Both the position numbers and the translations under genes were made by a program. Under the pieces are notes generated by a model, which was not told the DNA's origin, ran no database searches, and saw nothing but the letters and a program-made list of their open reading frames with translations. DNA of 63,366 nt, the filler included, from Rhabdomonas costata (lineage: Eukaryota): the NCBI GenBank assembly GCA_019059605.1. It is 36 parts of 36 records of this genome, joined end to end, with 100 filler letters (N's around TTAATTAATTAA, not from the genome) between each part and the next. Parts side by side here need not be neighbours in the genome. Positions count along the whole stretch, not along the records: positions 38,789 to 40,451 come from JAHMHO010011076.1; 35 more parts are not named here. One strand, 5' to 3'. Below are positions 1,765-54,553 of this stretch, piece by piece; position 1 is the stretch's first letter; every line of letters starts with the position of its first letter.

Positions 1765-1944
1765 GTGGTGGGTTTCAAGTCTCCAAGGTGTGGACATGAC
1801 TCCCACTTCTCCAGGCGACGAGTACTCGGAGTGGCGATTCACATGTTGAATTCTCGATGAAGGTAATATGATCATCTGCGTCCGGGCTAGCGCTTTGTTT
1901 GGGATCAGAGTGAAATCTCGTGTGTTGTATTCTTTTTGTTGCAG

Positions 1945-3022: not shown

Positions 3023-3164
3023 GTGAGCCATGATTGCGTTAGTGCCAGCCTTCAGAGGCACTGCCATCACGCAGCAGCTTTTTGACCTCCACAACTAACT
3101 GAAAACCTTTGATCCCGACAAATTCTTTTTTTTGAAAAGAAATCGGCTGTCAAGGAAGGAGGAC

Positions 3165-3215
3165 AAAAAAGTCGCCGACTGGGATTCGAACCCGGGAACT
3201 GCCGCGACGAAGCTC
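3165..3215 (-). other. tRNA-derived fragment (T-arm/B-box followed by T6), possible SINE relic
   Basis: The minus strand reads cccgGGTTCGAATCCcagtcggcgacTTTTTT. I could not fold a complete cloverleaf. Confidence 0.4.
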
Positions 3216-6952: not shown

Positions 6953-8135
6953 NNNNNNNNNNNNNNNNNNNNNNNNNNNNNNNNNNNNNNNNNNNNTTAA
7001 TTAATTAANNNNNNNNNNNNNNNNNNNNNNNNNNNNNNNNNNNNNNNNNNNNGGTTTGTGGGTATGAGAAGGAGGGAAGCTGTGGGGAGGGAGGGGGGAG
7101 GCACCGGAATGCTTCCAGAGGTCACGGCCCGCAGCAGAGTGTTGCGGACGTAAGTGCAGGGAGCCTTCATTGTAGGCTGGAACTGCAGCAAAGGCACATG
7201 AACACATCCATTACGGGAACGGAGGTACGATCAGTCATCCGTTGTGCACGCAGCTATACATATGCGGTGGCACACGGCACGCTCAATTCCCACCACAGCT
7301 ATTTCACAACAACTTTTGCGTGTGTACCCAAACATCAGTACTGATGCATATGCGGCTTCATCCGTTTTCTGCGATGGCAAAGTTCTGGTCTTCTCGGGGT
7401 GCAATGGGCGGTGAGGAGGAGGGTAATCGCAATCGTTGTCCAAATACATAGCCGCTCAAAGCGGAACGTGTGTGTGTGTGTGGGGGGGAGACAGAACACA
7501 GCTTTGAAATGAAAGCAATTCGCTGTTCATTTGAGAAAATAAGTGAGCCAATAAAAACCAGGCTACTCCAGGCACCGTTGCACGCACAGACAAATGGCGA
7601 ACCTTTGAGAGCCACAGCAGCAGCTGGTCTAGAAGAGCGCTGCAAATGGCCACCGAGGGCTCAAAGGGGAAGGGCTGGCCCGCGCATTTCTTGTGCACAG
7701 TCTCGACAATCTGTGAAAAGAGAAGGAGCGATTGATCCACACAAAGACGGAAAGAAAAGAAAAGCACAACTTCACAGGTCGACAACCTGCGACCCAGTAA
7801 AAACGATTGGTTTCGTTGGGCAGTGCCAGGAGAAATATACGGCGTGATTGAAGGAATGCACCTTATGTGTACGCATCGGAAAACCCGAGGCAAGTGAACA
7901 GGCTTCAACCAAGCGTTGCAAAGCATGATCGAAGCGGTTCGCAGAAAGAATGCCAGTCCCTTCCGTCACAAAAACAAGAGAAACCGTCATACCTTGAAAA
8001 AATACAAGCAACTTTGTGTCCCATTGCGTTAGCATGGTTCTGCCGCAGATTGCGCGTTGAAACGCGCAGGCTCTGCGAAACCGTCCACCTGCGTGACAGT
8101 GGCATTATTGACGGTGCAATTTTGGCAGCACAGAC

Positions 8136-8284
8136 CTCCGTGAGCTCTCTGGCGACGTCCTCGCTGTCGCTCTTGTAGAAATAGCCGTCCAGGTAGGCTG
8201 CCACGGCGCGCATCTTGATGTCCAGGTTGTCAGAGTCCAGACGGTCCAGAAGGGCCTTGAGGCTCTTGTGCATCGCGTCAAAGC
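8136..8284 (-). CDS. Hypothetical protein exon (helical, possibly HEAT/ARM-like)
   Basis: GC-rich AG/GT-bounded exon encoding MHKSLKALLDRLDSDNLDIKMRAVAAYLDGYFYKSDSEDVARELTE. Confidence 0.35.
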
Positions 8285-9843
8285 CTGCCGCAAAAGAAAA
8301 ACCACATCGTCATCCCAAAATCATCCCCGATTCCACCCCTTGCATGCACCAAGAAGTAAGCGAGGCACGCGCTGTGTTTCCGTGAAGCAGTCGCGCAAGG
8401 CGGTCTGACACCCGATCTTTATTCCACCTCATTCGACTGCGCACGGTTCAGCGTGACAGGTTCTCCAAGGGCAGCGTAGCCAATCAGATACAGCAGGCTA
8501 CATCGTAAACAGAGTTGTTAACCAGGATGCCGTGAAAGACCTGACCCCTGGCTTAAAAATAGGCTTGAAGGGCTGTTCGAAATGTCACACACTAAATTCT
8601 CAAATTTTGAGGTGTTCCAAGGCATAGAATGAAGAAAAGCCACAGAGATTTTGCATGACATCCTCATTCCAATTCCGTAAAAAACCCCCCATCCCATCCT
8701 TGTCACTCTAATATTTNNNNNNNNNNNNNNNNNNNNNNNNNNNNNNNNNNNNNNNNNNNNTTAATTAATTAANNNNNNNNNNNNNNNNNNNNNNNNNNNN
8801 NNNNNNNNNNNNNNNNGGTTTTTTGGTCTTAGTACAATAGATTCGTAACCTCGTAGACTATAGACCCCCCTTTCAGCTCCTTAGACAACAGTAGCTGGCA
8901 AAAGATGAGTGGGATTCCTCCTGAAGATCCTTTTGGAAGCCTCCCACGATTTCGCACGCTGTTTGGGGGTGCATCGTTGCCTCTGCGATCATTCCTTTGC
9001 CTGCCGCTGTTATATCAATTGCATTTGTTCTCATCCTCAGCAATTTGCCATCAGCACAGTCTGCGCGTTATGAAAGAAAAGACGGAAACAATCTGGAAAG
9101 AAGGACAAGAATGCGGTGCATATGCCACATACATAACAGGTTGGAAAATGTGTTGGAGGTGTAGTAAAACAAAACATACAAAGCATCCTAGAGAAAATTA
9201 AACCACAGTCCATCATTCGCCTTGCAAGCATGAAAACAAGCATAAAATCGCTGGTCGTTTGTTTGCGCGGTTGGCTGCCACCCAATTCATTGCCCCATGT
9301 TCGGTGCAATGGAAGTTGGGGGAGGGGAACGGTTATCACTGGTGACAACTTCTACTATGCGAACATTTTCTTTAAAAATTTTTCTGTTAAAAGGCCCCCA
9401 GATAACGTCCCCGACTCAGCCGCCCGCTCCGGCCGCGGCATGGACTGGTCCCCGCGGCACGCCGCGCCGCTGGCCTTCGCCCCTAAACTAATGCTATCCA
9501 ACTCTTCCGCCCAAATCCCAGCCATTGGCAAGCCCTTAGCCTGCCCCAGAAAGGTCATGCGATCCGGAAATGCACAGGAGCTGAGGACAACAGCACAGCA
9601 CAGCCGTATGCCCGGCATTGGCGATAAGAACTGACACGAAATCTTCCCAGTCGAATTCATCCATGCCTTTCTTGGAGCAGAATGAATGGCACACGCAGAT
9701 ACATTCCACAAGAGAAGTCAAAACCAAGGTGCAGTGCACACGAGCCAGTGGGCGCGCGCCCCTCCCACACACACACGCACACGCACAGAGCAGCAGCTGT
9801 GACAGTGCGGATGAGGTGGGAGGGTATGCAGGGAAGGGGTCTC

Positions 9844-10050
9844 TCAGCGGCGGGTGTGGTTGTTGAGCTTGCGCTTGCCCGAGTTGAGATGCTTGGGCTT
9901 GAGGTCGGGGATGTGGCGGTCCCCCTCCCCCTTGGGGGCACTCTTGTTGCGCACCTTGACCTTGGCAAACGACAGACGCTTGGCCCGCTCCGCGAGCTGC
10001 GCGCAAACAGGCACCCCCACTCCAGTCCGTTCCGCTGCACTCACAGAAAC
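9844..10050 (-). CDS. NOG1: Nucleolar GTP-binding protein 1, terminal exon
   Basis: KGEGDRHIPDLKPKHLNSGKRKLNNHTRR* matches the conserved NOG1/GTPBP4 C-terminus (GEaDR.I...KPKHL.SGKR). The exact acceptor is uncertain. Confidence 0.85.
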   Translation of the reverse strand, partial: VSVSAAERTGVGVPVCAQLAERAKRLSFAKVKVRNKSAPKGEGDRHIPDLKPKHLNSGKRKLNNHTRR

Positions 10051-10708
10051 TGAGCTACTAAATCTCCCACATTCCCCTGGGAATGGGGAGGAGGGCAAAA
10101 AGTCTTGCTCACCAAAACCCAGAACCCAAGTAGGGAGGAAGTAAGAACCGACCCAAATACCCCCTTCGGAGCTCAACAGCTCATCGTGTCAAAAATGAAG
10201 TTGCCCCGGAAGTCAAGGGAATGCGCAGGGAATCCGCAGGATATCGTATCGCCCCATAGAAACAGGCAAAAAGTATATCATTTCTTCATAAAGTACACTA
10301 CATCCACACAAAATATGCAAAGTTGGGGATTAGGAAGGGGGGGTTGGATCTCACACCTGAACACATGGTCGCTTCCGTGCTGGGTATTATCTATGTGGGA
10401 TTTTTGGGAATAGGGAGTGCCGTCGTAAAGCGGGGCTTCACTCTCTCCTTCCAACAAAGCTTCTCCTCCCAACCCCACCNNNNNNNNNNNNNNNNNNNNN
10501 NNNNNNNNNNNNNNNNNNNNNNNTTAATTAATTAANNNNNNNNNNNNNNNNNNNNNNNNNNNNNNNNNNNNNNNNNNNNGGGTTGTGGGTCCCCACCAGA
10601 ACTCTGCCCAGGAAGGCAGAGCAGTCAAACCATGCAAAGTACAAAACTATGAAAAGAAAGCAACCGCATCAACGATGATAATCTAAAATGCATATAGCAG
10701 GGGGACAC

Positions 10709-12221
10709 CTTCGAAGTGTCTCGCCCTCGCTGGGAAAGGGGTCAGCAAGGTCTTCGGACCTCTCGTTGACTTCCTCTTCAGGAAAATCTTCGCCGTTGGT
10801 GGTGCATACCTGCGCACATAACGTAAACCCTTCAGCTTTTGGAGTGCTGGGAACGTCATCATGCTCAACTTCGAACGAGAGTTCGTTCAAATCCTATGCG
10901 TTTGCAATGCCTTCACAGTCGCTGAATGGTGCAGGGCAAATATGTGAAGCACTCCGTTAATATACCTTAATATATGTACCCTATCCAGCGACTGCAACAT
11001 CCGCTTCTCACTAATCTCTCACATGCACCAGGCAATTACTGGAATATTCAGGTCGAACGCTCACAACATGGGGTCCTTCATGGTATGGCCCGCGCCAACT
11101 CAAAAGTTAGAGGTAGGGTAGACCCACAACGAACAGGCCGACACGAGGCACCTCCACATCAAAACCAGTTTTTTCACCACTCCTTTTTCTAATCCACAAA
11201 TGCCTGATTCAGAGCGCACTTCCTCGGGCTGTGACTTTTTGAAGAAACGCGGCATAACGTCCTTTTCATCTCCCCAACAAATGCTGGGACAGGGGAAAGG
11301 AACGGACCACGGCCATGAACATTTTTTTCGCTACAACGCGCTTTCCGCCTAAAATACACCATACATACCAGTCCAACCGCAGCCTCAACGTCAATGCCCA
11401 GCCTCGTTTTGCGGCCCCTGAAGTCAAAGGCAACTTCGTAGACCGATTCGCCGTCCTGCTCCACCGACAAATGGCATTGAGCGGGGTCCTAGGCAAAAAA
11501 CCACCTCGTCAAATGGAGGTGCCTGCAATCAGCATACTGCAAGCGCAGTGCGATGCATTTCTTTTTTATTGGGGGGGGGGTAACTGTTTAAAACAGTTTC
11601 ACGTTGTCAAAACGTGCGTGTTACAATACTGGACGTCTGGTATTGAAGTAAATTTCTGGTATGTCAGAGGGCTGACTTTGGTGGTGACTTTGGTTCCCGG
11701 GAAGGGCGATAACCGGTTCCCAATAGAAGCACCATAAAAGGCACCATAAAGTGGGGAGGGGAGTTATCGTAGTCATGTGTTCATGCGCTCCCAAAAGCGG
11801 ACATAGGCCCGGTTTTCTGGCGGTCGAACCGACCAGCATACTTTTGAACCTTATCGTTAAGCGCTCCACCTTCCCAAAACGTATCAGACCCTGTAAGTCT
11901 TCTGCCTTCTTCAAACCAAAATCGACCATGAGTTTCGATCGTAAATTAATGAGTAACGAAGTTCTGGTCAGATACCATTGGGGCACGTGGGCCCAGTGCA
12001 CCCGTCGACAGCTCAACAATGGCAATAAAACGCAAAGCAACGCCACACCGTAATCGCAGCGACGAGTGAGGTCACCACAATACTCTTCTGGTCTTCACGG
12101 GAGTAGACCCGGTAGGGCCTCTGAGGGTCCTCCGTCTTCAGGCAAAGCTGCTCCGTCATCCGCACCAGCCTGGGCTTCCCCGGCTCCGAGCTGCGGTAGA
12201 GGTACAGCTGCCCAAGAGCCT
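10709..12221 (-). CDS. Hypothetical protein, partial (4 exons)
   Basis: Phase-compatible exons at about 12221-12076, 12001-11870, 11488-11378 and 10893-10709 (EALGQLYLYR.../VHWAHVPQW...IRFGK/DPAQCHLSVE...EAA/DLNELSFEVE...). Family not recognised. Confidence 0.45.
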
Positions 12222-12370
12222 CTGTTCAGAAAACAAAAAACANNNNNNNNNNNNNNNNNNNNNNNNNNNNNNNNNNNNNNNNNNNNTTAATTAATTAANN
12301 NNNNNNNNNNNNNNNNNNNNNNNNNNNNNNNNNNNNNNNNNNCACGGTTGCTGCTGGGGGGGGGGAGTCT

Positions 12371-13471
12371 TCATCCAGCTAAAGCAGACACAGCAGAGCG
12401 GATCGCTTCTGCACGCCCGGGCCAATCCCAGGGACTTTGCTGGGGACCCTCCACCGCACTAAGTGGCCAGTCCAAAAGGGCAGCATCCGTCTCGAACTTT
12501 TCACCATCAGAACGAAACCACAGCTCACCATACAGCGCCGTGAACAGTCCCACAACTACAGGTTGCTGATACAGTCGGAACCCCAGGCTCCGGTACAGCC
12601 TGCACGCCGCAGCGAATACTCCGTTGCCCAGAGTGAGTAGCCGCACTCGCTGGTACCCAAGCCTGGCGGCCTCATCAAGGGCGGTTTGCGCCAGGGCACG
12701 TCCCCAACCCTGGCGCCTCAGCGCAGGGTGCACAGAAAAGAGACATAGCTCTGCTGTGCGCGGCTCCATGGTGGGATCCTCAACGTCACATGGTCGAATG
12801 CTGACTGTCCCGGCAAAGGCAAGAAGAGAGGTGTGGCTGGCATTGGGGTTCGACGGAAAGAGGCACTCAAAAGGTAGTTTTGATATTGTTCACTCTTCGG
12901 AAGAGTCAGGAAGGTTCCTAAAAGTTGAAAACCAGATCCACCAATTTTTAAATCACAATAGGAAACGACCAACACAGCAATTCAATAGCCAGCAACCTAA
13001 CAAAACACAATTATGGGGAACACCCACTTTCAGAAAACGGCCGAGCCGCTTAACGACCCCTCTGATACAAATGATGCACAATATTTCCACTTGCGGTGGT
13101 TTACCAAATTACTCGCAATATATAAAAGAACGCACGTGTGTCAGCTTCAATGCTTCATAGTGGTTATATCACGGAAGCTTATGGAAATGGCCACTTCCCG
13201 AACCCGGCATCAACCAAAAGGTGGGTGAGTCAGCGGGCGAGGAAAAACTACTCGCCAGGAGCTGCTCGGTTGTGGGAATGCCAACCCAGCACAGCACGGA
13301 GGAAAACCCGTGGTCGTCCAGAAGTGCGGGAAAGTCCGAAGGGAGATCCTGGATCTGCGCATGTAGGGCTTCGGGAGAGAAGCTGGTGGCATCCAGGTGG
13401 TTGATCATGTGGAAGGCCCGAACGGCCTCCCGCTCGCTTGCCACTGCACGCCGTATGTTTGGAGCTGGCAT
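12371..13471 (-). CDS. GNAT-family N-acetyltransferase (2 exons, probably complete)
   Basis: ATG at 13471 (MPAPNIRRAVASE, a typical GNAT start). Exon 2 carries motif A, AELCLFSVHPALRRQGWGRAL, and AACRLYRSLGF, with the stop at 12371. Confidence 0.85.
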
Positions 13472-14171
13472 CAGAAACGTAGAGGAATTCTCGGGGAAGA
13501 GACAAAAAACACTGTACACAGAAGAAAAACTCCTGATTGGGTTCCCTCTTTCCTCACCTCTTTGCCTCACCAACTTTGCTCAGTATGTTCCGCGGTTAAG
13601 GGGCGGAGGCTACAAAGCTACGAAGCTAATATTTAAGAATTCTAAGAGTATCTGAGAGTGCCAACGAGAAGCCTTGTGCAATGCTGAGCCAATTCGAGCT
13701 TTACATACAAATTCCCTTCACCCGCATAAAAGGGGACCCCGAAAACCGAGGAAAGCAACTCTGAGGTAGTCGGGTTTCCGCCGATCACGCCAGCGTTTCA
13801 TGCCAAGCAATTCGCCGCGCCAAAGCCACTGTACTGAGTTCACAAGTGCCCTTCAAGCAGCCCGCAGCGAGGTGGGGTGGGGCAACAGTGAGACAAGCCT
13901 GACGTTTGACATATGGGCCTTCAGGGGCCAATTCCTCAATGGGCATTTCCGGCCCGGAACAGGTTCTTCTGGCGAAAAATGGACCTTCAGAGGTGCTGCA
14001 ACACACNNNNNNNNNNNNNNNNNNNNNNNNNNNNNNNNNNNNNNNNNNNNTTAATTAATTAANNNNNNNNNNNNNNNNNNNNNNNNNNNNNNNNNNNNNN
14101 NNNNNNGGTGTTGGGTGGCCCTTGATGGGAGTAGGTGTATCGGCAACTCTACAAATGGCGGTGCGTGTTAC

Positions 14172-15582
14172 CTGCTCCAGAGGGATTTGGGTGGAGACTC
14201 GCGACGCCAGCTTCGAAGTGCGCTTGTCCCACAAGCAAAGGCCATCCCGGCTGGTCACCAGGAAGCAGTCTCCTGCCAAGAGACGGACCCCCACACATAG
14301 CAGGAGAAGAGCAAACAACAAGAGTACAAGTGGGGCTGTAACGGTGAACCGCCTGACATCCGCATCAACCATGCGCCCTGCAACCTTCTCCTTGGGCAAT
14401 GGATTAAGATAGATGTGGGTGTCTTCGCGAGGCTGTGTGTGTGTGTGTGTTACTATTTCGGGTTGTTGCTGGAAGGATCTGGTATGCCGGCATGCCCCAA
14501 TTTTTATTTCAGCAGCAGGCAACACCAACCCTTCCCGGTAGGGTTGGATGAATGCTATCCACTTTTCTACGGAGGGGTTTGTGCACGGCGAGGGTTGCGC
14601 GTTGTGTCTCCAGGTGATCAAACATCTCAGTACCACGCCCAAAGAGACAAACCAGCAAATCACATCGTACGTATGAACGCATGAATGCACGTGATAAATA
14701 TACAAACACACAAAAGACAACCGCGGGGGGATAAAGGACGCCCGCAGCCGCCACACCAGAGTCTGCGTTGGGAAGCGTGCAGAACCGCACGCACTTCACC
14801 GCTCCTCCGGCGACAGGGAAGCTCGTGGGCTGCCGCACCCCGTCCGGCGCGGCCTCGAAGAGTCGCACTAGAGCCTGCGGGGACCCACTCTTCCGTGAAA
14901 CCTGACCTGTGAAAGCCGCCGCGAGCACACCCGCAGTATCGATACACACCTCTGTGTGTTCCGGTCGGTCGACAACCCCATTCTGCAGCTTGTATGACTG
15001 CAGTTAGGCTGCCGTGGGTCGGGGTGAAGGCTTCGATGTATATTCGTCGCGAGATAAGGTCCAAACTGGTTAGTTTGAGTTTCCTTAAAATTTGAGCAAT
15101 TGTGAGGGGTGGTTGGCGTGGATTGTCTGACGTCACCTTGAGAGGTGAGAGAGGTAAAAACAGAAGGAGCGAAAAAAAAGAATCTCCAACCAAAAAACCA
15201 CTGTCCTCAATTAGAGTACACTTTTTCGACTGACACGTTTTGGAGATGACGCAGACATCATGCGATGCGCTCCACTGGATTCCAGGTTGAACCCTACGGC
15301 TGGAAATTGAGAGAGGTTATCCAGTGCAGCTCGCACACCCTGGCTTGCACATCTTCAAGAGCATGTTACGAACCTTCCACCACCGGTTACCCATCGCTCC
15401 GCGAGGGAGAAAGGAAGGGAGGAGAGACGGGGAGGGGGCATGCCCAAAGCGAAGAGATGGACATCTGTGGACACATCGGCCACGTCGGTGTACAGCCCAT
15501 CCTCATGGGGGAACTCCACAATGACCTTATTGGTCTGCAGGTCGTAGAGGTACCCCGAGTCGGTTGAGCCGCACCCAAAGGC
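14172..15582 (-). CDS. WD40/beta-propeller-like protein, partial
   Basis: Exons encode SGYLYDLQTNKVIVEFPH, ALVRLFE...GGAVKCVRF and FLVTSRDGLCLWDKRTSK, which resemble WD-repeat strands. Confidence 0.5.
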
Positions 15583-16423
15583 CTGAAGGCACCCCGCACA
15601 CAACCTTACACACAACCACCCCGTTTGGGGCTTCCCGTGGCACACAGCGGTGGATGGAGCCCACTGCTTGCTAGAAGATAGAATCAAAAAAAGATCGATC
15701 CACGATGGACAGATCGACTGGCAGTGCCGAGAAGTTAAGGAAAGACCCACACCCACACCTCCACACAACANNNNNNNNNNNNNNNNNNNNNNNNNNNNNN
15801 NNNNNNNNNNNNNNTTAATTAATTAANNNNNNNNNNNNNNNNNNNNNNNNNNNNNNNNNNNNNNNNNNNNTGTTGTTGGTGCACAGGCAAAAACAGAACT
15901 GCGTGCGGCAACGCAATTTGGGGCGCGCCATGACACGGGGGAAACTGTTTCGAAGGCGTTAGTAATTAACTTCTCGTTTGCGTGTTTTCCTGAGCTCCAA
16001 TGTGCTCTTCTACGTTTTTTTTCCACGTGATGCGAATCCGAGCGTCCCTTCCCGCGTGCCATTCTTTCTGCCTGCAGGAATCCCCTCTCCTGTTTCTCCA
16101 CCTTCCCTTGCTATACTGTACGTACATTCTTTGCTCTTCTATTCCCTTATCTTGATGAGGTTGTTTTTTTGTCGGAGGCTGGAGGCCAACATGTTTGCGG
16201 ACTACTGGCACCACCTATGTACGGGCATGCCCTGTAGACTGCGGTTGTGCAGACCCCAAAATGGGGTAAACATTTTTTTCGACGGCTTTCAATATCATTC
16301 AGCGCAAATTGTTAACATCACCGCTCAGAAAACAAGTCCAGCAATCCGCGCAGAGCGACACAAAGAGCGGTGGTGGGGGAGCTCAAGGCGGAGGAAACGG
16401 TGGGGAGAGAAATATGTGCAGGC

Positions 16424-16849
16424 CTGCCAGCCCGGTGGCAGTCAAAAGGGCCATGAAGTACGTGGACTCCAGGCCGCTGGGGGCCAAGGTGTCGGCGTAC
16501 ACGGGGCCGCTGACGTTGACTAGTACCTGAGAGCGTCCCGAGGGTGAGGCCAGGGAAAGACCGCGAAGAGAGAGGGAGAGTGCTTGCCATTTGATCACGT
16601 GGTCTCCAGGCCCAGGCGCGTGCTTGAAAGTGAGGCTGAGGAAAGGATGAGGATGCATAAGTTGCAAAAATCTAGTCGACAATTACTCATAAAAAAAAGG
16701 TCGCGAGAGAGATGTGGAGCTCATCGCACCTGTGCCACCACAGCAGAGGCGCACAGCATGGCATTGGTGGCGCCTTTGGGGAGGAGGTATCCACAGGCGT
16801 CGTAGTGAGAGTGAGCCTGGACGTCCGGCATGATGTCCATTAGGTGGGC
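16424..16849 (-). CDS. Hypothetical protein exons
   Basis: Phase-0 joined exons AHLMDIMPDV...SAVVAQ | VLVNVSGPVYADTLAPSGLESTYFMALLTATGLA. Confidence 0.35.
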
Positions 16850-17713
16850 CTGCACCGCGGTGGGAGGGCAATCACCACAAAAAGACACTCAAAGTGGCAT
16901 GCATATATATGTGCATATCGTTTCGGCGTTACTTTCGTTGTGCACCACGCTTCCCTTTTAGGTGTTTATTTGAGATGCTTTCGCTTTATGACCTTCTGGA
17001 TACAGTTGGAAATGATAAGAAACGAGCACATCCGAGACGGCTACTTTCAGTGATTCTCGTGCGTGGATTTTGTTATTCTTCTCACCTGGGGTTAGGGAGC
17101 ATTACCTATGTTCGGATTTTGTTATTCTTCTCGCATGAAGTTAGGGAGCTTTTCATATTTTCACTGTGGAAAACAACGAAAGTAATGCCATCGTTTCTTG
17201 TCTGCGGAAAGGAGTGTCGTAAAAACCACCTTGAACATCATGATGACTGCATTGCATTAGCACAGGAGGAGGAAAGAAGCTTCCTTTGCACGTTGGCCAT
17301 CATTCTTACTGGATGCTGTTTACCCTCATTTCCAGAGGGAACTATGTCGCCGCGACAGTCCAACCCATTCTGCCCCATTCCCCGCATGCAAAGCAAACCT
17401 GCTCCACTTCCAGCGGAGAGGGCTGCGAGGGAACCTTCCCGATAGGCACGCCTTTGTGGTAGTGGTGGAGATGCGGCAACAGCTGCGGGGACAGCAGCAG
17501 AGAGCTGCTGCCACCCACCACCCAAACACACCCACACNNNNNNNNNNNNNNNNNNNNNNNNNNNNNNNNNNNNNNNNNNNNTTAATTAATTAANNNNNNN
17601 NNNNNNNNNNNNNNNNNNNNNNNNNNNNNNNNNNNNNGGGGTGTGTGCTCATTGCGTTCTGTGGGCGATCCCGGTTGCATCGGTGATGCTGAAAATGGAA
17701 CAAAAATAAACAG

Positions 17714-19290
17714 CGCGGTCGCTGCCGCATACTCCGATCGAGCTGGCCGAGGTGCGGGCTGCCACTGGGCGGGCGGCAGACCACCGGGTCTGCGACGGCT
17801 GCCTGGCAAAGCTCCCTCTCAGCGAGTTTACGGGGCCTGACCAGTGGCTCTGCCCGCGATGCTGCGCCCATCCCCCCACTGCAGGCGGTTTCTACCACGT
17901 CACGCCCACACCCTCCCACATCCGCACTCACTCACCGCCGCGTTCATGTGAAGAGAGCAACGTCAAATGCCACGGGTGTTTTGAGAGTAGTGCATTTGTT
18001 TGTGCGTTCGATCATTTGGCTGACAACACTCGTGCAATGCAAAAGTATGACTGCAGAAGTGAAGTGATGAAGTAAGAGAAAGGTGGTGCGGTTGTTGGTG
18101 TGCAGGGTATGCGAAAAGACTTGCGTTGGGGTTGTGATGTATTTTTGCGCAGCAACTGTCCGTCTTGCTGCTGTGCCGGAAGCAGCCCTTCCTTCAAGTC
18201 CAGCAGCCATGGGTACTTCCACCCACACAGCCATGTTCTTCGTGTCTTTTCGCAGCGTCACATTAGCAGTATTATCATAACTGACAAGCAATAAACGGAT
18301 TACAGGCCCACCTCGTGTAAAGAAAGAGTCAAGAGCTGGAGTTTTGCCCTTTCCAGAAACATCTCGTTTGTGTTTGCTTCGAGCCTGTGGTGCGCTTGTA
18401 ATGCATTGCAACTTGGGTGCCTGTTTTTCCTTGTGCCCAAACACAGCCTGGGGAGTTAGGGACGCCTTGCTGGATACCCGGGGGGCTTTTCCACCTCTCC
18501 AGAACATTGTCCCCGAGTGCCTTGACAAATGACCGTCCAAATTTCCCCACCCCCACGGTAAGAATGGCTCTGGTAAGAGTGGCTAAAGATAAGCTGTCCT
18601 TTTTCTCTAATTTGCTGAAATGGCCTCCTTTGCATGACCCATCTTCTGTATGTTCTCTGAACACGGCAGGAGATAAATGGGCCGGATAAGTGCTACTGAT
18701 TGGTTAAAGAGATATAGGGGAGATGTGGGGCTTCGTTATTGCTTTCCTCTTTTTTTTTTTTTTGCGAACCGTAATTTCAGTTAACCTGCAAGCGAGAACC
18801 AGTCCATTCCTTCATCGCTTCGGTTGCCCTTTGGGCGCCGCCAAGGGGCGAGGGTGGGTATTGGCCTGAGGATGCAGAGAACGGCCACGCACCGTTTCGG
18901 AGGACCCACTGTACACAGGAGAGAACCCGGGCCTGCTTCGGCTTTGCCCTCCAACGAGTCCGATTCATCAGCCACCTGCATTGCCTTGTAGCCTCTTTGA
19001 TTTTGCTTAGATACGTCTTTTCGTTCTTCTCTGTTTCTGTTCTCAAAAGAAGAGGCGAATCGGCGCATGTGCTCCGATGAATTTTTCTCCGTTCGCTCCG
19101 TATCCACACCACACCCGCACTCGTCCATGGGCACAGGGCTGCAGAGGGCCTCCCGCAACGTGGTTCGACTATGCGCGCAGTGCTACCGGGAGGACGTCAC
19201 CGTTCCGGTTTCGGACGTGTTCCCCCTGTGCCGTGGATGCGCTGCGGGTCGAGGTTTGTACCCCCTTCGCCTCCAGCTCAAGCGCACGCG
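17714..19290 (+). CDS. Zinc-finger-containing protein, partial
   Basis: Two GC-rich exon-like segments carry paired CxxC motifs: VCDGCLAK...WLCPRC (about 17780-17870) and LCAQCYRE...PLCRGC (about 19170-19245). Confidence 0.4.
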
Positions 19291-19761: not shown

Positions 19762-20567
19762 CTCTGCTGCACCGGAGTAGTTCCCGCACTCGTACTGGAA
19801 CTTCGCGTACTGATACATGCTGTCCAGAGTCTTCTCCGAAATCCCGTACATCTTGTCCAGGTAGTCCAGGTTGAAGTTAAGTGTGCTGGGCAATCAACGA
19901 GGGAAAACCACACATGCATACAACTCACCTATCCTCCTCTGTGTGCATGTATGCATCAAGGTGCCTCGCACAATTTTAACGAGCCGGGACGGGTGGTGTG
20001 TAGGTGCAGAATTTCACCTCGTGTTCGCAGAGAAAAAACCGGGGGGGGGGCGCACACATACACACACCTTTTCAGGACTTTCATCCGCTCCGAGCCTTCG
20101 TCACCACTAAAGACCTCCAGGAAGACGCGGATGTCACCCTGCAGCCGCCGCAAGTTATCCACAACTTGCTGCCGCTTCTCTCTCATGGCCTGAAAGACGG
20201 GAGCGAAGGAAGACAGAAGCATAGACCAAATAAAAAAACACTCGCACCCACAACGACTTCGACAAAGACGTTCTCTTGCACAGGAAACTGCGTAGAAACA
20301 AACAAAAAACCCAGGTGGGGGGTCCGCTTCAGGTATATCATCATAGCTGGCTTCCGAGACCTGTGGGACATCGTCAGTTTTGTTGACATCTCTGTAGATC
20401 TCCGCGCAGTAGTCAATCATGTTGGTTTTCGCCAGGAGGGCGATCTTGGCATCAAGGATCTCAGTGGTAGGGTGGATTTCCTTGGCCTGCAGGAAGTCAA
20501 GCAGAGGGAGGATAAGGTGGCGGTCCAGGAACTGGGAGAGCTGCTTGGTGAGGTCGTACGTGGCCAT
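19762..20567 (-). CDS. EIF3E: Translation initiation factor 3 subunit E, 5' part (3 exons)
   Basis: Exons 20567-20361, 20189-20068 and 19885-19762, all GT-AG and in phase. They encode MATYDLTKQLSQFLDRHLILPLLDFL...KTNMIDY and YQYAKFQYECGNYSGAAE. Confidence 0.96.
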
Positions 20568-22924
20568 CTTGGAGGGGGCTTGGAGGGGGTTACCCTAGAC
20601 AACTGCACCGCCCTCGGGGACACACGAACTTGAAGTGTGCTGACCGCCGCGCCTCAGGGAAAAATAAAAGAACTCAAAAACAAAGAAGGCTGGTAAACAG
20701 CAACCAAAAACTATAAGGGCGCTTGTTAAAAGAGGTGCACTATTACAAATGGAATGTAAACCCAGTGTCAAATGACGGCACCACCACAAAATCAACCCCC
20801 AAAAGGGCCCGAAAAGAGCTTATATGGACCTTTCTATCCCTTCATAGATAGAGTCCTCCTCCTGCACAAGAATACGAAGCATGCTAATTTCAGGAGTTAA
20901 TCCAAAATTGCAAGCCTTCACGGAAACTCTAGATAGACAGCAACTCCTGCATCGCGCTTTTATAGCAAATGCAGACTACATAACGTTTCGAAGTTTCACC
21001 GAGTTTTACCCATCACACCCATCGTCAAACCATGGCAGAATAATCGCGAGCCCCCCAACCACCACNNNNNNNNNNNNNNNNNNNNNNNNNNNNNNNNNNN
21101 NNNNNNNNNTTAATTAATTAANNNNNNNNNNNNNNNNNNNNNNNNNNNNNNNNNNNNNNNNNNNNGGGGTTTTTTCGCATTGGTTGGCTCTTGTTGCTTT
21201 CACACACTGTTTACAAAAGGTTCAAGCTCATTCTCGGATTATCCAAGAATGAGCTTGAACCTTTTGTAAACAGTGTGCGAAAGGAACAGGAGCCAACCAA
21301 TGCGAAAATGCACCTGTGCAGTGACAAACTCCCGGCTACCACCCATCCAGACATAGTCCTGCGGCAGGTTACAGTGTGCTACCTTTCGTTTCCTGCGGTC
21401 GCACTTCTCTTCTCGCACAGACTGCCAGAGTCCTCACGCCCGAGACAATTGCATGAAATCCAGTGCTACCCAGCCGTAACCGCACACACCTGAGTTCCCT
21501 CCTCCCTGGCACGCCCAGCTGGGGGCCCAGAGACCACTTTCGGAAGCCCCGCAATCACCCCACCGTGGACCTGAGGATGCATTATAATACAAGGAGTATT
21601 TGGGAGGCCTGGCTGAACAAATTAGTGAGTGATACCTACCTGTACTTGCTCCATCGGGTGCTGATTACAAGATGTCAGTGTAAGAACTTTGGCACAGCCC
21701 CAAACTTGTCATACAAAAAGAATACAGAAATGTAAACCTGACCGAAAAGCAGAGGATTGACACCGGGACAACGAGTATGCACCAAAACCAATGGCCTGAA
21801 CTCTATATACTATATAGTTTGTAGCTTGAAAATCCATACACGCCATCGAGTTTGTGGGTACCAGCAACACAAAAAATGAAAGAAAATGCAGGGTGGTTGC
21901 AGATGAAAGCAGTAATGCGCCCCAAAAACGTACAAACCAGATTTGGGGGGTGGCCATGGCATGTGCGGGGGGCCTCATTGTCCGGAACAGAGGGGAAAAC
22001 CTCGCTGAGCAGGTCATCGAGGCTATTGCCAGTGCTGATGCTGTTGCTGCTGCTGCTGGCAATGGTGGTGGTGTTCACCATCACACCTGAACGGGCACAC
22101 CCAAATACCAAAGGTATGCAAAAACTTCAGCTACGCCTTGTGCAAGCGCATCAGTGAGATGAAAAAAAAGTCTTGTGAACCCCTTCAGACTTGTATCTCT
22201 CCCTGAACCAACGTGCTCAAAGCTCTAGGGCAGCCCGTTTTTCCCTCGGCTGAGAGCTCCAGTCCGTTCGTGCAGTTTTCCCCTGGGAACAACTGCATTC
22301 CCAAGTGTGCAACAAAAGTCCAACGTACAGGGTGAAAACGCAGCGTCCGGGTTCGGATAAGGTTCATTTCTTTTGACGGGTTTGGTCAGCGTGCTTTTTC
22401 GCGTTGCTTCAGCTCTCTCTTTAGTTCTCTTTAGTGTCAAGGGAACTGACGCACTGTCTGCCTTGTTTGTTTGTTCTTTGCTTCTGTGGTTGTGGATCCC
22501 TATCCACCCCCAACCAAACGCAGGAATGTCTCACTGAAAAATAAGGGGTAAAGTGGGCACGGGATGAAGTCCTGGCGGCATTCCGTCCATCGCCCGGCGA
22601 CCCTTTTTGCACACCTCTCAGCTGCCTCTTCCCGTGCAGTCCATTTCTACTGCAGTTTTCATATGTGTGGGTGGTTTGGTGGGTACCTCACTTTCGGTGC
22701 ATCACTTTCAGGACGCAGACTGCCAACCCGAGCTTCGGCTTAGGGGTCTCAAGATGCTATGGCAGTGGCACATCCCGAGCTCCAACCTCCCGACCTGCCC
22801 CCCGCCGCCCTGGGACACCCCACANNNNNNNNNNNNNNNNNNNNNNNNNNNNNNNNNNNNNNNNNNNNTTAATTAATTAANNNNNNNNNNNNNNNNNNNN
22901 NNNNNNNNNNNNNNNNNNNNNNNN

Positions 22925-30558: not shown

Positions 30559-31605
30559 GTGATGCACCGGTGCCGCCTGCAGGGCACTGTGCGGACACTA
30601 CACAATCGCCTGCGCAAGCTGCCCAACATCACCAGCCCCAGCCCCTCGGCCCGAAGGTGTCGCTCAGGGTGATCTTGTTAAGCATTGATTGCAAACGGAG
30701 AAATTCCTCGGACTGCAAAGTTCTACGGTCTCGGGCAGTTTACCCCTTTGTCAAGGTCCCCAACAAAAGAAACAGGGTTGTCAAGGGCGTACTTTGGCCA
30801 AGAAACCGCAGCTTTGCTTAACAGTTTGCAAGGCGCTTAGTCTGTGCTGATCGCGCCCTTCCCCGCCGCGCAAAAAAATTCATACTCTCGCCCGATTGGA
30901 CATGCACTCACGTGTCTCGTATCTCAACGCAGTTCCCTTAGAGTGCAGAATCATTTTCATGCGTACTTTATGTCTCGAAGGAGCACACCTTTGAGTGTTG
31001 TGGTGGCTATTACTCGCCCGCTCAGCTATGCCGAGAGGCAGGCCGTGAACACTGTCGTTCAGGGCAGCGCTGCCGACGTGATCAAGCTTGCAATGCTGGA
31101 AGTCCAGCGCGTGCTTGCTGACGCCCAGCAGCAGCTGCAGCAGCAGGCTCTTGACGGCGCCTCCCTTCCCCAGCTAGTGGCCCAAGTCCACGACGAGCTG
31201 CTGTTCCTCGTTCCCACCTCAGGTGGGGGCCTGGAGCGGTGGGTCCCCGAACTGGCCCGATGCATGACTTCCGCTGCCTCACTGCGGGTTCCTCTGTCAG
31301 TGAAAGTGTCTGCAGGGCCCACTTGGGGAACCCTGCAGCGCTACGGTGTGTACCGTCAGCCTGCTCAGCCCGCCCACGGTGCCCCGACACTGGCACGACT
31401 TGTCCTGGTCAGCTCCTCCTCAGCTGCTGCTGCTGCCGCTGCTGCTGCATTACTCTCGCCTCCCCGCATCTCTGGAGATGGGGTTGAGACTCCTGCGACG
31501 TCGTGTTTTCCACAGCCGGGTTTGCCGCTGGTTGAAAATGTGGATGAGCCCCAAGAGCTGCTTCTCGCTCCCGTTGATGAGTCAGGGGGCGAAGAGACCC
31601 CCTGA
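30559..31605 (+). CDS. Family-A DNA polymerase (Pol theta/nu-like), last two exons
   Basis: Exons 30559-30656 (CRLQGTVRTLHNRLRKLPNI) and 31026-31605 (AERQAVNTVVQGSAADVIKLAM; motif C LVAQVHDELLF; LRVPLSVKVSAGPTWG), with the stop at 31605. Confidence 0.9.
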
Positions 31606-38788: not shown

Positions 38789-39024
38789 GGGGTTTTGTCA
38801 AGTACCTCGTCCAACAAGGACCACGGGGGATTTGCAGAAAGGATTTGGTCCGGTCCCCAGTGGTAGTTGCAGGCGTTGTAGCCCTTGGCATGCAGGTCCT
38901 CCGGATCAGCCGAATAGTACCTGCTCAATTGGTGATGTTTTCTGCTTGCAAACAGATCCACCACAGAGGAACCAAAGTACTTGCATATTCCCATGAACAC
39001 TGTTGGACACAGAATCACATCCTC
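38789..39024 (-). pseudogene. Dam-like N6-adenine DNA methyltransferase domain of retrotransposon type (truncated by contig end)
   Basis: VFMGICKYFGSSVVDLFASRKHHQLSRYYSADPED...YHW....LSANPPWSLLDEVLDK contains the SAM-binding DLFAS (38944-38958) and catalytic NPPW (38821-38832) motifs. Confidence 0.8.
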
Positions 39025-39589
39025 CTAAATTCCAAAGTTGGGATGCGGTTCCCATGCAATCTTCATGAGCGGGGAACGGCCCTCAGTCAGATCTCGCTTC
39101 CCCACTGAAAGTGAACTAAACCGCTGTTCGAGCGGCGCAGGGTCGCTGTATAGTACCAATCCCATGCATTGCTTCCACACTGGAAGTGTAGCAGCATCTT
39201 ACGGTTGGTAGGGTGCGAGCTGAAGCACAATTCCATCCCAATCGAATCGCACTACCTTGTTGGGAATGTTCTATCGCTTCCTAATTCACTTAGTATGGAA
39301 ACACTGAAATGTATACACCAAAAATTAGTCATCCTCATGAACGGCATTGTGGTAAAATTGCTGGTTGCTTTCCTCAAAATTCTGGTCCACGTTACGTTCA
39401 GCATGTGCTTCGTGCAATATTGGAAGTCCTGGTCCACGGCTTGCTGTTGATGAGCCGGGGCATTGGAATCTACCAGTTGAAACATCAGTGCTTGTTCCAA
39501 TTCCCATTGTTTCTCTACTTGAAGAAAGGCGTCATTAGCCTGCTCATGCGTGGGCATCTGGACAACTGTGTCAAGCTCTGTCTTCTTTA

Positions 39590-40440
39590 ATGAGATCAGC
39601 TCGCTGGAATGGAAGACGGGCCTCATCTTCTTCCGATGTGGGCAGGGATGTAAATCTCAGAGGTGTTCTTTCAAGGTGATCTGCATCTTGATCTTGTAAG
39701 GACCAACGGCATTCGGTGCCAGGGGGCCAGCGGGACCCATCTGGTTCCAATGGTGTTTCATCTGGTTGATCAAGACGTCCTGCCAAACCACAAATTGATA
39801 ATTGGCACACTTGCGGTTGCCAAACTCCGCTGCCATTGCCCGTTTATGTTAAATGGCACTGTACAAAGGACCCAGTCGGAGTTCAGCTGCGCAAGCCATT
39901 CCTTGATCGTCACCGTGTTCATGCCGGTTAGCCTCTCCTCGTCAAAAAAGAAGATAGGGTGGTAGCCCAGGTTCAAAAAGTATGTGCTGAGCTATGTGCC
40001 TCCAAGAGTAGCGTTGTTGATGGCAATCTCAACAACATCCAGCAGGAGAAGCCATTTTGGCAGCCTCCAATACCTGAATTCCTGCATTTTTGCGGGTACA
40101 ATCGTCCGCAGCACCTAATTCATTTATCTGGTTTGTTCTCTCCGCGGCACCATTCCCCTGAGTATGGAACGGTAAATTCATGCGCTGAGGGCAATCACCT
40201 TTGGCGCACCACATCGTGCAAAAACAGTTCTGCCACATGTGGTGCCTTCACTTCGTCCGAGCAGGGAATCAAGATCACCTGCTTTGAAGCACTGTCCGTG
40301 GCAGTCAGCACCTCATGGGCATCTACAATTGTTCCATGTGACCTCGTGGAAGATGATGTAGTGACTTGGCCTGTTGACATGCCACGCAAGTCCTGCAATA
40401 ACTGCTCATGAGCCTCCGGAGATGTTCAATTCGGTACCGC
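39590..40440 (-). mobile_element. Decayed Ty3/Gypsy LTR-retrotransposon integrase
   Basis: In order across frameshifts and stops: YCRTCVACQQAK....PRG (Zn-binding CC), VLTATDSASKQVILIPC...AELFLHDVVR, PFHTQGNGAAERTNQ, WLLLLDVVEIAINNA...FLNLGYHP, then the GPY/F module LAPNAVGPYKI...RPVFHSSEL. Confidence 0.85.
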
Positions 40441-40551
40441 CCCCCCACCCCNNNNNNNNNNNNNNNNNNNNNNNNNNNNNNNNNNNNNNNNNNNNTTAAT
40501 TAATTAANNNNNNNNNNNNNNNNNNNNNNNNNNNNNNNNNNNNNNNNNNNN

Positions 40552-52890: not shown

Positions 52891-54553
52891 TGTTTTGGGT
52901 ATCAGCCTTCTTGCAGCCCACGTGTTGAGGGAAAAAACCACTCTCTCATCCGCAATAACATTGACTGCAGGCAGAAGGCCCGAAAAACGATCAAGCGCTC
53001 TCACGTTGCGGACGTCCGCGGTTCTCTTCCAGTGCCCTGCGTGAAGGGAGTAGTCCTCAGCTGAGTATGAGCGTTTGTCCTGCGAAGCAGATGCAAACTT
53101 TTGTTCTCTCGCTGCAATTACTGCCTGGTGTGTGGGCAGCAACCAAAGAGCATGTGCAGGTACTTGAGCTCGGGAGGATAACATGGTGCAGCGAGTGCTG
53201 ATGTTGGTGAGGACGAAAGAGATTTGAGGTGTTGTCATGACGGGTGTCCGGCAATGAAGAATGCAGTCCTGCAACACTGGGTCCTTCCGCGAGCGGTACA
53301 AGGTCGTGAGGCAAATTGAGAAGAAGTTGTATATCACAAGGCCCGAAAGCAGGGGTGATGGTTCGCCAATGGGTTCATTTTGATAGTGGTCGCCACAAGC
53401 GACAAGGCAGATTCCGCCAAACACCTTGTCATTGCCCCTGAGTTTGCGAAGAAGAATGTCCATTGCAGCCAGCAGCTTCGCCCCAACTTGAGCAAATTCG
53501 TCCACGAGGAGAACGTGGAGCTCTTGTAACATTCTCTTTTGAATGGGGTGGGATGCCAAGGTTCGAAGAGCTGAGCTTGCCAAGGAAGCCGCGGATTTTC
53601 CTCTTTGCTTGTCAACTCTGAAGCCAAAAAGAAGGTGGATATGAACACCACCAAGCTTCGCCGCTCGAAGTGCAGCAAGCGAAACCATGTCCCACTTCAG
53701 GTTCCCCTTGGACTGCAAGGTGCGACAGAGATCGGAAAGAATGTGTGTTTTGCCCGATCCAGGAGGTCCGGTGATGTACAGCGGGGCGACGAAGGGCATG
53801 CTGTCGAAGGTTGGAGTGCAGTCAAGCAGAGGTCTCAAATGATGCAGCAGGGCTGTCTTTGCTCGCTCCTGCTCGTCCCAGGATGCGTCAGATTGACCTT
53901 CACCACGGTGCCACTCTGGAACAGAGGTGACGTAAACCGCTTGTCTGGCCGACCGAGCTTCAGTGGCTTCCTTGTATTGCTCGTTGTGGCAAGAGGCGAG
54001 GTCATCTTCACTGCTGGGCCATGACAGGGTAAAGCGATCGACGTTGGAAAGGCTTTCCCATGTAGATCGAAATATGCTCATCATCGACTTGTAGCCACAT
54101 GGCCAGTAATGGAGACGATGTCCAAACTCTGAAAAAGTGGATGAAATGTTGAGAGGGCACCGCCTGGCGTGATCCAAGGTGTAGCGAAGCAGGGCCTCTT
54201 CGTCACCGAAGATTGTCGAGCGGATGGCGTTTTGAACGGTCCACGCTGCTACTTGGGAAGGCGAATAACGAGGATGGACTACTATCATCTCTTTGGCTTC
54301 GTAGTCCAAAAGCGCTGAAATCCAAGACAATTCCCCAGACAACGGTGGAGTGTCCAGCCTTGCGCTTTGGATAAACGCAGGTAAAAGTTCTTCCGCCCCG
54401 AGTCTCTGAAAAAGGTCACAGAGGCCCTTCATGTTGCGCAGGACGGTCTTCCTCAGCTTAACCCGAACTCCCCGGAGGTCGAAAAGACCGTTTTTCTTCC
54501 AGTCCAGGATGAAATCCTGACTCACCGCATGGCTGGAGAAGTGACCAAAAACC
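52891..54553 (-). mobile_element. Intronless Pif1-family (SF1B) helicase ORF, open at both ends; probable Helitron-like element
   Basis: About 554 uninterrupted codons with YITGPPGSGKT (Walker A), LGGVHIHLLF, LLVDEFAQ (Walker B), LRGNDKVFGGICLVACGDHYQNEPI (Pif1 signature) and LTTLYRS. The helicase call is strong; the mobile-element assignment is inference. Confidence 0.75.

Follow-up and report, generated by a model that had tools for sequence, protein, structure and literature searches.

Does a contig of the protist Rhabdomonas costata, in which a decayed integrase is followed by an adenine methyltransferase domain, preserve part of a retrotransposon that encodes both? The contig, 38789–40451, is one of 36, each of 1,659–1,667 bp, that together with spacers of the form N44-TTAATTAATTAA-N44 make up the 63,366-nucleotide stretch of DNA analysed (the window), and the region of interest, 38789–40440, takes up almost the whole of it. 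The preliminary description proposed that this protist hosts an LTR-retrotransposon family with an adenine methyltransferase at the C-terminus of its polyprotein. The integrase–methyltransferase fusion in the contig is confirmed as real. The contig very probably holds a truncated piece of a dead Ty3/gypsy-type LTR retrotransposon, of a family whose pol ends with an integrase, a long variable linker and a Dam-like methyltransferase (a ‘DAM-LTR’), and the interpretation as an LTR retrotransposon with a C-terminal methyltransferase is supported by collinearity with intact open reading frames and by tree placement.

The minus strand of 38789–40451 carries a decayed Ty3/gypsy-type integrase, recognisable from the CxxC of an H2C2 finger, a remnant of the core and a GPY/F-SH3 module. 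The contig starts within the H2C2 zinc-binding domain, the N-terminal domain of a DDE integrase, the C-terminal part of which (40311–40439, minus strand, one in-frame stop) has the CxxC as CRTC at 40386–40397 and aligns with residues 1141–1183 of the L013 pol and 792–832 of P0163, both from public sequences. The match to Pfam Integrase_H2C2 (E 8.6e-5, 23.0 bits) falls below the cut-off of 25.5, the contig containing no more of the profile than its last 26 positions, 33–58 of 59. The N-terminal remnant of the integrase core (rve; 40183–40314, minus strand) does not share the frame of the zinc finger, contains one in-frame stop and matches L013 pol 1203–1250 (37% identity) and P0163 858–901 (43% identity) in blastx. 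The integrase ‘E’ motif, ERTNQ (FHTQGNGAAERTNQ), lies at 40128–40142 in a minus-strand segment (40128–40169) that aligns with P0078 132–145. Just upstream of this motif the stretch with the second catalytic Asp is absent, and about 38 residues of the L013 pol (1250–1288) stand opposite only about 16 codons of the contig. The C-terminal part of the core (39845–40135, minus strand) is in a third frame, with blastx matches to L013 pol 1288–1374 (38% identity), P0078 161–224 and P0149 21–82. No intact D,D,E triad is seen in the contig, the core being disrupted by the frame changes, the stops and the missing second-Asp stretch; the rve core is present in the relatives L013 pol, P0163 and P0078. The GPY/F module of SH3_Tf2-1 type (39570–39842, minus strand, one in-frame stop) has GPY at 39696–39704 and VFH at 39609–39617, and with its GPYKI and VFH motifs it aligns with the Pfam SH3_Tf2-1 regions of P0036 (9–90), P0163 (1041–1127) and L013 pol (1407–1465), the identity being 39–40% to P0036 and P0163 (40% for P0036). 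Over the integrase segment the summed E-value against the intact L013 pol is 4e-27 in a one-sequence search.

On the same strand, about 545 nt beyond the integrase, comes a Dam-like N6-adenine methyltransferase domain, of which the N-terminal part is present; the SH3 homology ends at 39570 and the core of the methyltransferase (DAM) starts at 39024. The spacing agrees with the roughly 560 nt of degenerate sequence described before, but about 250 nt of this (39025–39276, minus strand, three in-frame stops) are not spacer and correspond to a conserved N-terminal extension of the methyltransferase domain. Read in the methyltransferase frame through the stops, the extension matches P0025 2–140 in blastx (44% identity over 139 aa) and also P0012 and P0006. 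What is left, 39277–39569 on the minus strand, is a variable linker between integrase and methyltransferase without a recognised domain. Its similarity to the P0154 linker, which is acidic, is weak, and a 134-aa open frame at 39255–39656 has no Pfam match. In the relatives the linker measures 130–380 aa, has a high content of Pro, Asp and Glu, and aligns poorly.

The contig retains the N-terminal 77 aa of the methyltransferase core (38791–39024, minus strand), the contig end truncating the domain about 11 codons past NPPW. Both motifs of adenine methyltransferases are present, the upstream D-x-F-A as DLFAS (38944–38958) and (D/N)PP(Y/F/W) as NPPW (38821–38832). That the two survive in so decayed a copy had been pointed out and is borne out here, with one change nearby: the nearly invariant Tyr63, two residues ahead of NPPW, is Ser in the R. 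costata copy. Residues F25, W56, N65, P66 and K77 are invariant in alignment A1. In a phmmer search of 1.84 billion proteins the 77-aa piece found 192 relatives at E ≤ 1e-3, including 25 at E ≤ 1e-10, with a top match of 60% identity and an E-value of 4.3e-23; such matches are far beyond chance expectation. A Pfam scan of the eight stop-free minus-strand pieces of the contig matched Dam (PF05869) over profile positions 17–72 of 169 with an E-value of 1.7e-3 and 18.5 bits against a cut-off of 28.1, for a domain that the contig end truncates. With pieces this short, the Dam and H2C2 scores stay under the curated cut-offs, and the remaining six pieces have no credible match. The scan recovered the zinc finger and the methyltransferase at sub-threshold level and did not recover the GPY/F module, SH3_Tf2-1 having no direct match on these stop-free pieces. 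Among 33 related domains, 22 match the Dam profile at E ≤ 0.01, and several relatives linked to reverse transcriptase (RT) or RNase H score above the Pfam cut-off.

The R. costata copy is dead and unable to make protein. There are at least five frame changes between its homologous segments and at least seven in-frame stops within them, and the integrase core carries deletions. These breaks are not general assembly noise, since another contig of the window (52891–54553) is one uninterrupted 554-aa open frame. Searches with blastn, tblastx and tblastn found no further copies in the other 35 contigs of the window. The contig does not reach as far as the RT, the LTRs or the methyltransferase's C-terminal half, so that for this lone dead copy the element class in the host rests on homology to relatives known from environmental sequences; by itself the copy contributes no functional information.

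The contig strand is collinear with intact single open reading frames of unrelated public sequences (P0078, P0036, P0163 and L013). P0036, P0038, P0078 and P0149 each match the integrase and methyltransferase parts of the contig in order, and P0163 and the L013 pol are likewise collinear with it over both. The junction is thus not limited to this contig. The single RT–RNase H–integrase–methyltransferase frame that had been anticipated is found in P0163, a 1,684-aa open reading frame with the order RT-RNaseH-H2C2-rve-SH3-DAM, and in L013. Both L013 and L015 have a gag (Retrotrans_gag, zf-CCHC) and a 1,980-aa PR-RT-RNaseH-IN-DAM pol, with PR at 300–389, RT at 654–811, RNaseH at 874–1003, H2C2 at 1108–1166, rve at 1186–1283 and SH3 at 1404–1468, followed by the linker, DAM at about 1818–1979 and then the stop. 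The proposal of an LTR family with an adenine methyltransferase at the polyprotein C-terminus is upheld by this shared order in L013/L015 and P0163. LTR edges were not found in L013 or L015; in L013 a unit of 10,221 bp recurs with 100% identity, and L015 is without a direct repeat.

All 150 listed phmmer matches of the methyltransferase piece were scanned for neighbouring domains. Among these matches SH3_Tf2-1 or rve lies upstream of the methyltransferase in seven, and RT and/or RNase H without an intervening integrase in 12; the order RT-RNaseH-DAM-IN and a DAM ahead of the protease occur once each, two of the matches listed are false and 127 are without a second domain. Through DAM-only peptide patterns 18 metagenome loci were found, which were then confirmed with a query of integrase plus DAM, a step that biases the set towards integrase-linked loci. 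An in-frame integrase is present in all six loci with at least 1.1 kb of upstream sequence (four independent elements), and in the other 12, with less than 0.9 kb upstream, RT or RNase H is found there in none. A word-index protein search added five further relatives, two of them integrase-linked; other such searches for longer relatives gave no match, which is weak evidence. The public-sequence searches show in addition that the integrase-then-methyltransferase arrangement makes up a single coherent clade, one that is common among environmental eukaryotic sequences.

Trees of the DAM domain, which come from quick searches and short alignments and are unrooted, separate the two kinds of neighbourhood. 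With 127 rows and 78 columns, nine integrase-linked rows are set apart together by a branch of 95% SH-aLRT, and with 95 rows and 199 columns 12 integrase-linked rows are split from 12 RT/RNaseH-linked rows plus P0150 with a support of 98%. The R. costata copy lies on the integrase-linked side, within a set of 16 rows (96%) that includes P0036 and P0163. The preliminary description had asked whether other copies would show the methyltransferase after RNase H. In the DAM clade of the copy, RNase H is directly upstream in none and an integrase is upstream in all 12 rows with enough upstream sequence. These comparisons show the methyltransferase of the copy, as placed by its alignable sequence, to be part of a clade that occurs exclusively behind integrases. 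P0150 has RT, RNaseH, Dam at 816–916, H2C2 at 1076–1134 and rve, and in the tree its DAM falls with the RT/RNaseH-linked ones; the different domain order and this position indicate a separate capture.

Two other origins of the junction have to be weighed against that of a degenerate DAM-LTR. The finding contig, like most of the 36, has a G/T-only 5′ end and a C/A-only 3′ end, here 38789–38798 (GGGGTTTTGT) and 40440–40451, neither assigned to a strand and both outside the element, the first resembling a primer remnant and the second having the look of one left untrimmed. Several of the 36 contigs also retain a constant GTGGTGGGTGTGTTTGG-like word. We take the G/T and C/A ends to be remnants of whole-genome-amplification primers, and such ends imply that the template was amplified, which would allow the junction to be a chimera that arose while a single-cell type of sample was amplified or assembled. 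This is the least probable origin: a chance joining would not recreate the order, strand and domain boundaries of independent public open reading frames, nor would it pair the integrase with a methyltransferase of a clade that is always integrase-linked. Two dead elements lying side by side, with a gypsy integrase fragment adjoining or interrupted by a DIRS-type fragment that supplied the methyltransferase, would be in keeping with the heavy decay and with the change of frame between the integrase and methyltransferase parts. The methyltransferase domain is classically carried by DIRS elements (10.64898/2026.05.21.726589; Iyer et al.), and in Euglena nested insertions are described as able to mimic fusions (10.64898/2026.05.21.726589). 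This too is very improbable, if slightly less so, as the strand, order and approximate spacing match those of intact single open reading frames and the methyltransferase groups with the integrase-linked DAMs at 98% support. Moreover, directly upstream of the methyltransferase core there is the conserved N-terminal extension of close relatives and no insertion boundary. DIRS-like and LTR pol queries found no match to RT or RNase H anywhere in the contig, in which an integrase lies upstream of the methyltransferase, and none of the eight minus-strand pieces of this 1.66-kb contig has a Pfam match to a tyrosine recombinase.

As a DAM-LTR, the element is of a kind already known through the work of Fernandez-Moreno et al. 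(bioRxiv, May 2026; 10.64898/2026.05.21.726589), which describes five lineages of DAM-LTR retrotransposons (Chlorophyta chromovirus-like, Chloro-Ochrophyta, Ichthyosporea, Pyropia and Euglena), and the R. costata contig is a further example. The chlorophyte LTR methylase fusions mentioned in the preliminary description are among them. The likeness lies in a Ty3/gypsy-like polyprotein with a Dam-like adenine methyltransferase of the eukaryotic transposon-borne DAM family; that the methyltransferase is encoded together with LTR-retrotransposon domains is seen here by collinearity, the reading frame of the contig itself being broken. In DAM-LTRs the NPP motif is reported to be conserved, and the role proposed for them is that of exploiting 6mA-marked chromatin (10.64898/2026.05.21.726589). 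Unlike in some DAM-LTRs, the methyltransferase is here the last domain, after the integrase and a long linker, and a chromodomain was not detected. The Chloro-Ochrophyta arrangement, as described there, and P0150 share with the contig an LTR-type pol with a DDE integrase and a DAM, but have the DAM after RNase H and ahead of the integrase. DLFAS-type and NPP(W/F/Y) motifs also mark the homologous methyltransferase domain of DIRS1-like elements, and the methyltransferase piece is about 41–43% identical to RT-RNaseH-DAM proteins; in DIRS, however, the methyltransferase follows RNase H and a tyrosine recombinase is used, whereas here it follows a DDE integrase. A DNA-methyltransferase domain within the polyprotein, in Gypsy-type elements among others, is also described for the cytosine-DNMT retrotransposons (de Mendoza et al, 2018; PMC5890265), but those enzymes are C5 cytosine DNMTs that mark 5mC. 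The available text of the Chlamydomonas v6 paper mentions a methyltransferase domain only in the DIRS-derived INT1 and no LTR–methyltransferase fusion. The contig provides independent evidence that one more protist has Ty3/gypsy elements carrying an adenine methyltransferase at the C-terminus.

In intact members the methyltransferase would be translated as the C-terminal end of pol and would travel with the integrase and the reverse-transcription complex. It presumably uses S-adenosylmethionine (SAM), DLFAS resembling the SAM-binding motif and NPPW the catalytic motif, and its probable target is N6 of adenine in nucleic acid of the element itself. Across 10 integrase-linked sequences, 32–49% identical to the first of them, D-x-F-A and NPPW do not vary, and a full-length domain is predicted with confidence to adopt a Rossmann-type methyltransferase fold (pLDDT 88.9). 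These are signs of what may be a functional domain within the family. There would seem to be about an even chance that the target is cDNA, the RNA:DNA hybrid or newly integrated DNA. If it were DNA or the hybrid, new copies would bear 6mA and be found in permissive chromatin, following the model of 10.64898/2026.05.21.726589. A non-catalytic or otherwise different role is somewhat unlikely; the methyltransferase domains of DIRS1 are considered inactive according to Iyer et al (2016).

PCIF1-like methylation of the element's RNA is less likely again, and the same can be said of the wider proposal that the C-terminal domain, instead of writing 6mA in DNA, is a PCIF1-like module that methylates cap-adjacent or internal adenosine of the element RNA, or that binds RNA or RNA polymerase II. 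Among solved structures, a confident model of the domain comes closest to the cap-specific adenosine methyltransferase (Foldseek, 6irw_B, E 7.5e-5, TMq 0.65), and VIA-align gives 6irx_A a Z of 11.7 with an rmsd of 3.2 over 146 residues, the Z being lower for KsgA/Erm-type enzymes (about 9.5) and for the Dam enzymes of T4 (8.9) and E. coli (8.2). The lead in Z is about 2 units, however, and a common fold proves no function; furthermore, a profile search of PDB sequences found no credible relative, the best being a DUF4827 protein at E 0.0026, so that the structural ranking may merely mirror which adenine methyltransferases have been solved. Pfam PCIF1_WW is matched below threshold in several relatives, yet at the profile level Dam is favoured, with 22 of the 33 members of set A3 against four for PCIF1_WW at E ≤ 0.01. 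The domain has PCIF1/CAPAM as its top structural match and shares with it the NPP-aromatic catalytic motif, but PCIF1 is a cellular protein with WW and helical domains, neither of which is present here, and has capped mRNA as its substrate; in the structural alignment the sequence identity between them is only 14–15%. Iyer, Zhang and Aravind (2016) assign the DIRS1 methyltransferase to the PCIF1 clade. In the available text of 10.64898/2026.05.21.726589, eukaryotic DAMs expressed in Dam-deficient E. coli gave no increase in 6mA, consistent with a PCIF1-like role, while DAM-LTR copies carry more 6mA than other LTR elements, which argues against it.

More doubtful still is a combined possibility, that the integrase-linked C-terminal methyltransferase clade, known almost only from environmental sequences, was captured independently of the five published lineages, as one more such event, and acts in a PCIF1-like way on RNA or an RNA:DNA intermediate and not on dsDNA. 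If true, these elements would be writers of an RNA or hybrid mark, and such a target would account for the missing 6mA gain in E. coli. Should the domain be active, whichever its substrate, the elements would write their own epigenetic or epitranscriptomic mark, with a bearing on how they escape from or exploit host chromatin.

The contig at 38789-40451 holds one copy, dead and truncated, of a Ty3/gypsy-type element that carries a Dam-like methyltransferase at its C-terminal end. All of the integrase and methyltransferase features named in the preliminary description are present on its minus strand: the CRTC of the integrase zinc finger (40386-40397), the ERTNQ of the integrase core (40128-40142), GPY (39696-39704) and VFH (39609-39617), and, in the methyltransferase, DLFAS (38944-38958) and NPPW (38821-38832). 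Among eight stop-free pieces scanned against Pfam, Integrase_H2C2 (E 8.6e-5) and Dam (PF05869, E 1.7e-3) were matched, both under the curated cut-off because the pieces are short, and the other six gave no credible match. A 77-aa piece of the methyltransferase found 192 proteins at E<=1e-3 and 25 at E<=1e-10 out of 1.84 billion searched, the best at 60% identity (E 4.3e-23), a result that excludes chance. The spacer between the two domains had been called degenerate, which does not hold for 39025-39276; read through three stops, this stretch belongs to the methyltransferase domain as its conserved N-terminal extension.

The copy is decayed. Along the strand its segments of homology follow one another in frames 1, 3, 1, 2, 1 and 3, which takes at least five frame changes, and they contain at least seven in-frame stops. 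The region around the second catalytic Asp of the integrase core is absent, and the Tyr preceding NPPW, nearly invariant in the relatives, is replaced by Ser. A neighbouring contig is a single open 554-aa frame, so the frame breaks are not general assembly noise. That frame spans its whole contig (52891-54552, minus strand) and includes a helicase domain resembling PIF1 (Pfam PIF1, E 6e-12); it may represent a paralogue of cellular PIF1 or belong to a Helitron-type element. The window, 63,366 bases long, is made up of 36 length-sorted contigs of 1,659-1,667 bp each, separated by N44-TTAATTAATTAA-N44 spacers, and is not a single locus, so that the integrase-methyltransferase finding, which takes up one entire short contig, is confined to it. 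Most of the 36 contigs have a G/T-only start and a C/A-only end, with a constant GTGGTGGGTGTGTTTGG-like word retained at several. We take these stretches to be untrimmed whole-genome-amplification primers, in which case 10-30 bases at either end of each contig may be non-genomic.

The domain context of the methyltransferase was followed in a Pfam scan of all 150 relatives listed (72 + 78) of the 192, plus four cluster mates. SH3_Tf2-1 or rve lies upstream of the methyltransferase match in seven of the 150 (P0036, P0038, P0048, P0050, P0078, P0084 and P0149), while 12 have the DIRS-like pattern of RT and/or RNase H upstream without an intervening integrase; in 127, mostly short fragments, Pfam found no second domain. 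P0047 and P0089 were rejected as false matches. Two further domain orders are seen in P0150 (RT-RNaseH-DAM-H2C2-rve) and P0139 (DAM at 80-158, then a retroviral-type protease at 335-432); in the DAM tree the RT/RNaseH-linked side holds both. Blastx aligns P0036, P0038, P0078 and P0149 to the contig over its integrase part as well as its methyltransferase part, in order in every case. The contig is also collinear with P0163, a 1,684-aa protein in the same 90%-identity cluster as P0020, with RT at 294-453, RNase H at 516-645, H2C2 at 759-817, rve at 837-934, SH3 at 1057-1121 and the methyltransferase at the C-terminus.

Full-length relatives were sought in metagenome contigs from JGI by means of two peptide patterns, both from the methyltransferase domain alone. 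Candidates were confirmed with a joint integrase and DAM query, one that favours integrase-linked matches, which left 18 loci out of 76 pattern matches. Upstream of the methyltransferase, six of these (L004, L007, L011, L013, L014 and L015, representing four independent elements) extend for 1.1 kb or more, and all six have an integrase there in the same frame; RT or RNase H was seen upstream in none of the remaining 12, each with less than 0.9 kb of upstream sequence. L013 and L014 lie on a single 18.5-kb record and L015 on one 99% identical to it, and together these records hold an intact element. Its gag has Retrotrans_gag and zf-CCHC domains, and its 1,980-aa pol has PR at 300-389, RT at 654-811, RNase H at 874-1003, H2C2 at 1108-1166, rve at 1186-1283 and SH3 at 1404-1468, followed by a linker of ~350 aa, the methyltransferase at ~1818-1979 and a stop. 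The window strand aligns to residues 1141-1183, 1203-1250, 1288-1374, 1407-1465 and 1833-1915 of the L013 pol. Within the L013 record (1-17961) a 10,221-bp unit recurs at 100% identity, either as a tandem array with shared LTRs or as an assembly loop through identical LTRs; L015 holds 9,707 bp of the unit at 99% identity, no direct repeat was seen in L015, and LTR edges were found in neither. At L008 a DAM at the end of a pol (457-888) is followed ~1.25 kb later on the same strand by a match to L013 pol 555-628 (2137-2361), which points to neighbouring or tandem elements a short spacer apart.

A junction created artefactually in this contig is rejected by the same integrase-methyltransferase order in the intact relatives. 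The insertion of a DIRS element into a gypsy element would likewise bring the two domains together, but the window methyltransferase is collinear with intact integrase-DAM reading frames and falls on the integrase-linked side of the DAM trees, and this explanation is also rejected. An unrooted quick IQ-TREE of the 77-aa region (127 rows, 78 columns) has one branch, of 95% SH-aLRT support, with all nine integrase-linked rows and the window copy on the same side. A second quick unrooted tree, of the whole domain (95 rows, 199 columns, of which the window row fills 38%), left out the two false matches, five cluster mates and any unlabelled row with a match of under 125 profile positions. Here a 98% branch separates 48 rows, including all 12 integrase-linked ones, from 47 that include all 12 RT/RNaseH-linked rows and P0150. 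Together with P0036 and P0163, both integrase-linked, the window copy belongs to a set of 16 rows (96%); the row nearest to it is P0001, at 61% identity. The order in intact relatives, the collinearity and the trees thus support the original reading of a gypsy element with a C-terminal methyltransferase.

D-x-F-A and NPPW are invariant in 10 integrase-linked sequences with 32-49% identity to the first, which argues for a domain under constraint that probably binds a ligand or is catalytic. The full domain of P0021, from the window's subclade, was modelled with a 33-row alignment (model m92a6013ca791, mean pLDDT 88.9). Among solved structures, Foldseek ranks the human cap-specific adenosine methyltransferase PCIF1/CAPAM best (6irw_B, E 7.5e-5, TMq 0.65), with KsgA/Dim1-type rRNA adenine methyltransferases after it. 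A structure search independent of Foldseek gave 6irx_A (Z 11.7, rmsd 3.2, 146 residues), RNA adenine methyltransferases (Z ~9.5), T4 Dam (8.9) and E. coli Dam (8.2), PCIF1/CAPAM being nearer the model than the DNA Dam enzymes. Pfam Dam matches 22 of the 33 alignment members and PCIF1_WW four; a PDB sequence search gave no credible relative of the family.

The only directly relevant work found on LTR elements bearing an adenine methyltransferase is a preprint of May 2026 (10.64898/2026.05.21.726589). It counts ~10,000 eukaryotic DAM proteins, mostly retrotransposon-borne, claims the first DAM domains in non-DIRS LTR retrotransposons, named DAM-LTRs, and sets out five lineages. The kind of element is therefore already described, and the window copy is one more member. 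The same text reports higher 6mA and transcription of DAM-LTR copies in two ichthyosporeans, higher 6mA on Euglena copies, and 6mA not raised by DAM expression in E. coli. PCIF1 as the top match of the predicted structure stands against its 'prokaryotic-like DAM' label. Iyer, Zhang and Aravind (2016, PMC4738411) assigned the DIRS1 methyltransferase to the PCIF1 clade and regarded it as inactive. The predicted PCIF1-like fold fits that placement; the conserved motifs of the integrase-linked clade do not fit inactivity. PCIF1 acts on RNA, offering a parallel for an RNA or RNA:DNA hybrid target, though it would seem unlikely that the integrase-linked clade is both a further independent capture and active on such substrates in place of duplex DNA.

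Elsewhere in the window, a full-length U4 spliceosomal snRNA lies at 539-678 on the plus strand (RF00015, 64.4 bits, E 5e-12), the only Rfam match at the gathering threshold. Ordinary eukaryotic gene fragments encode the N-terminal domain of eIF3 subunit E (19959-20594, minus strand, E 6e-26), the C-terminal region of a DNA polymerase of family A (30841-31602, plus strand, E 5e-23) and, by a weak match, a PLP-dependent enzyme (5291-5800, plus strand).
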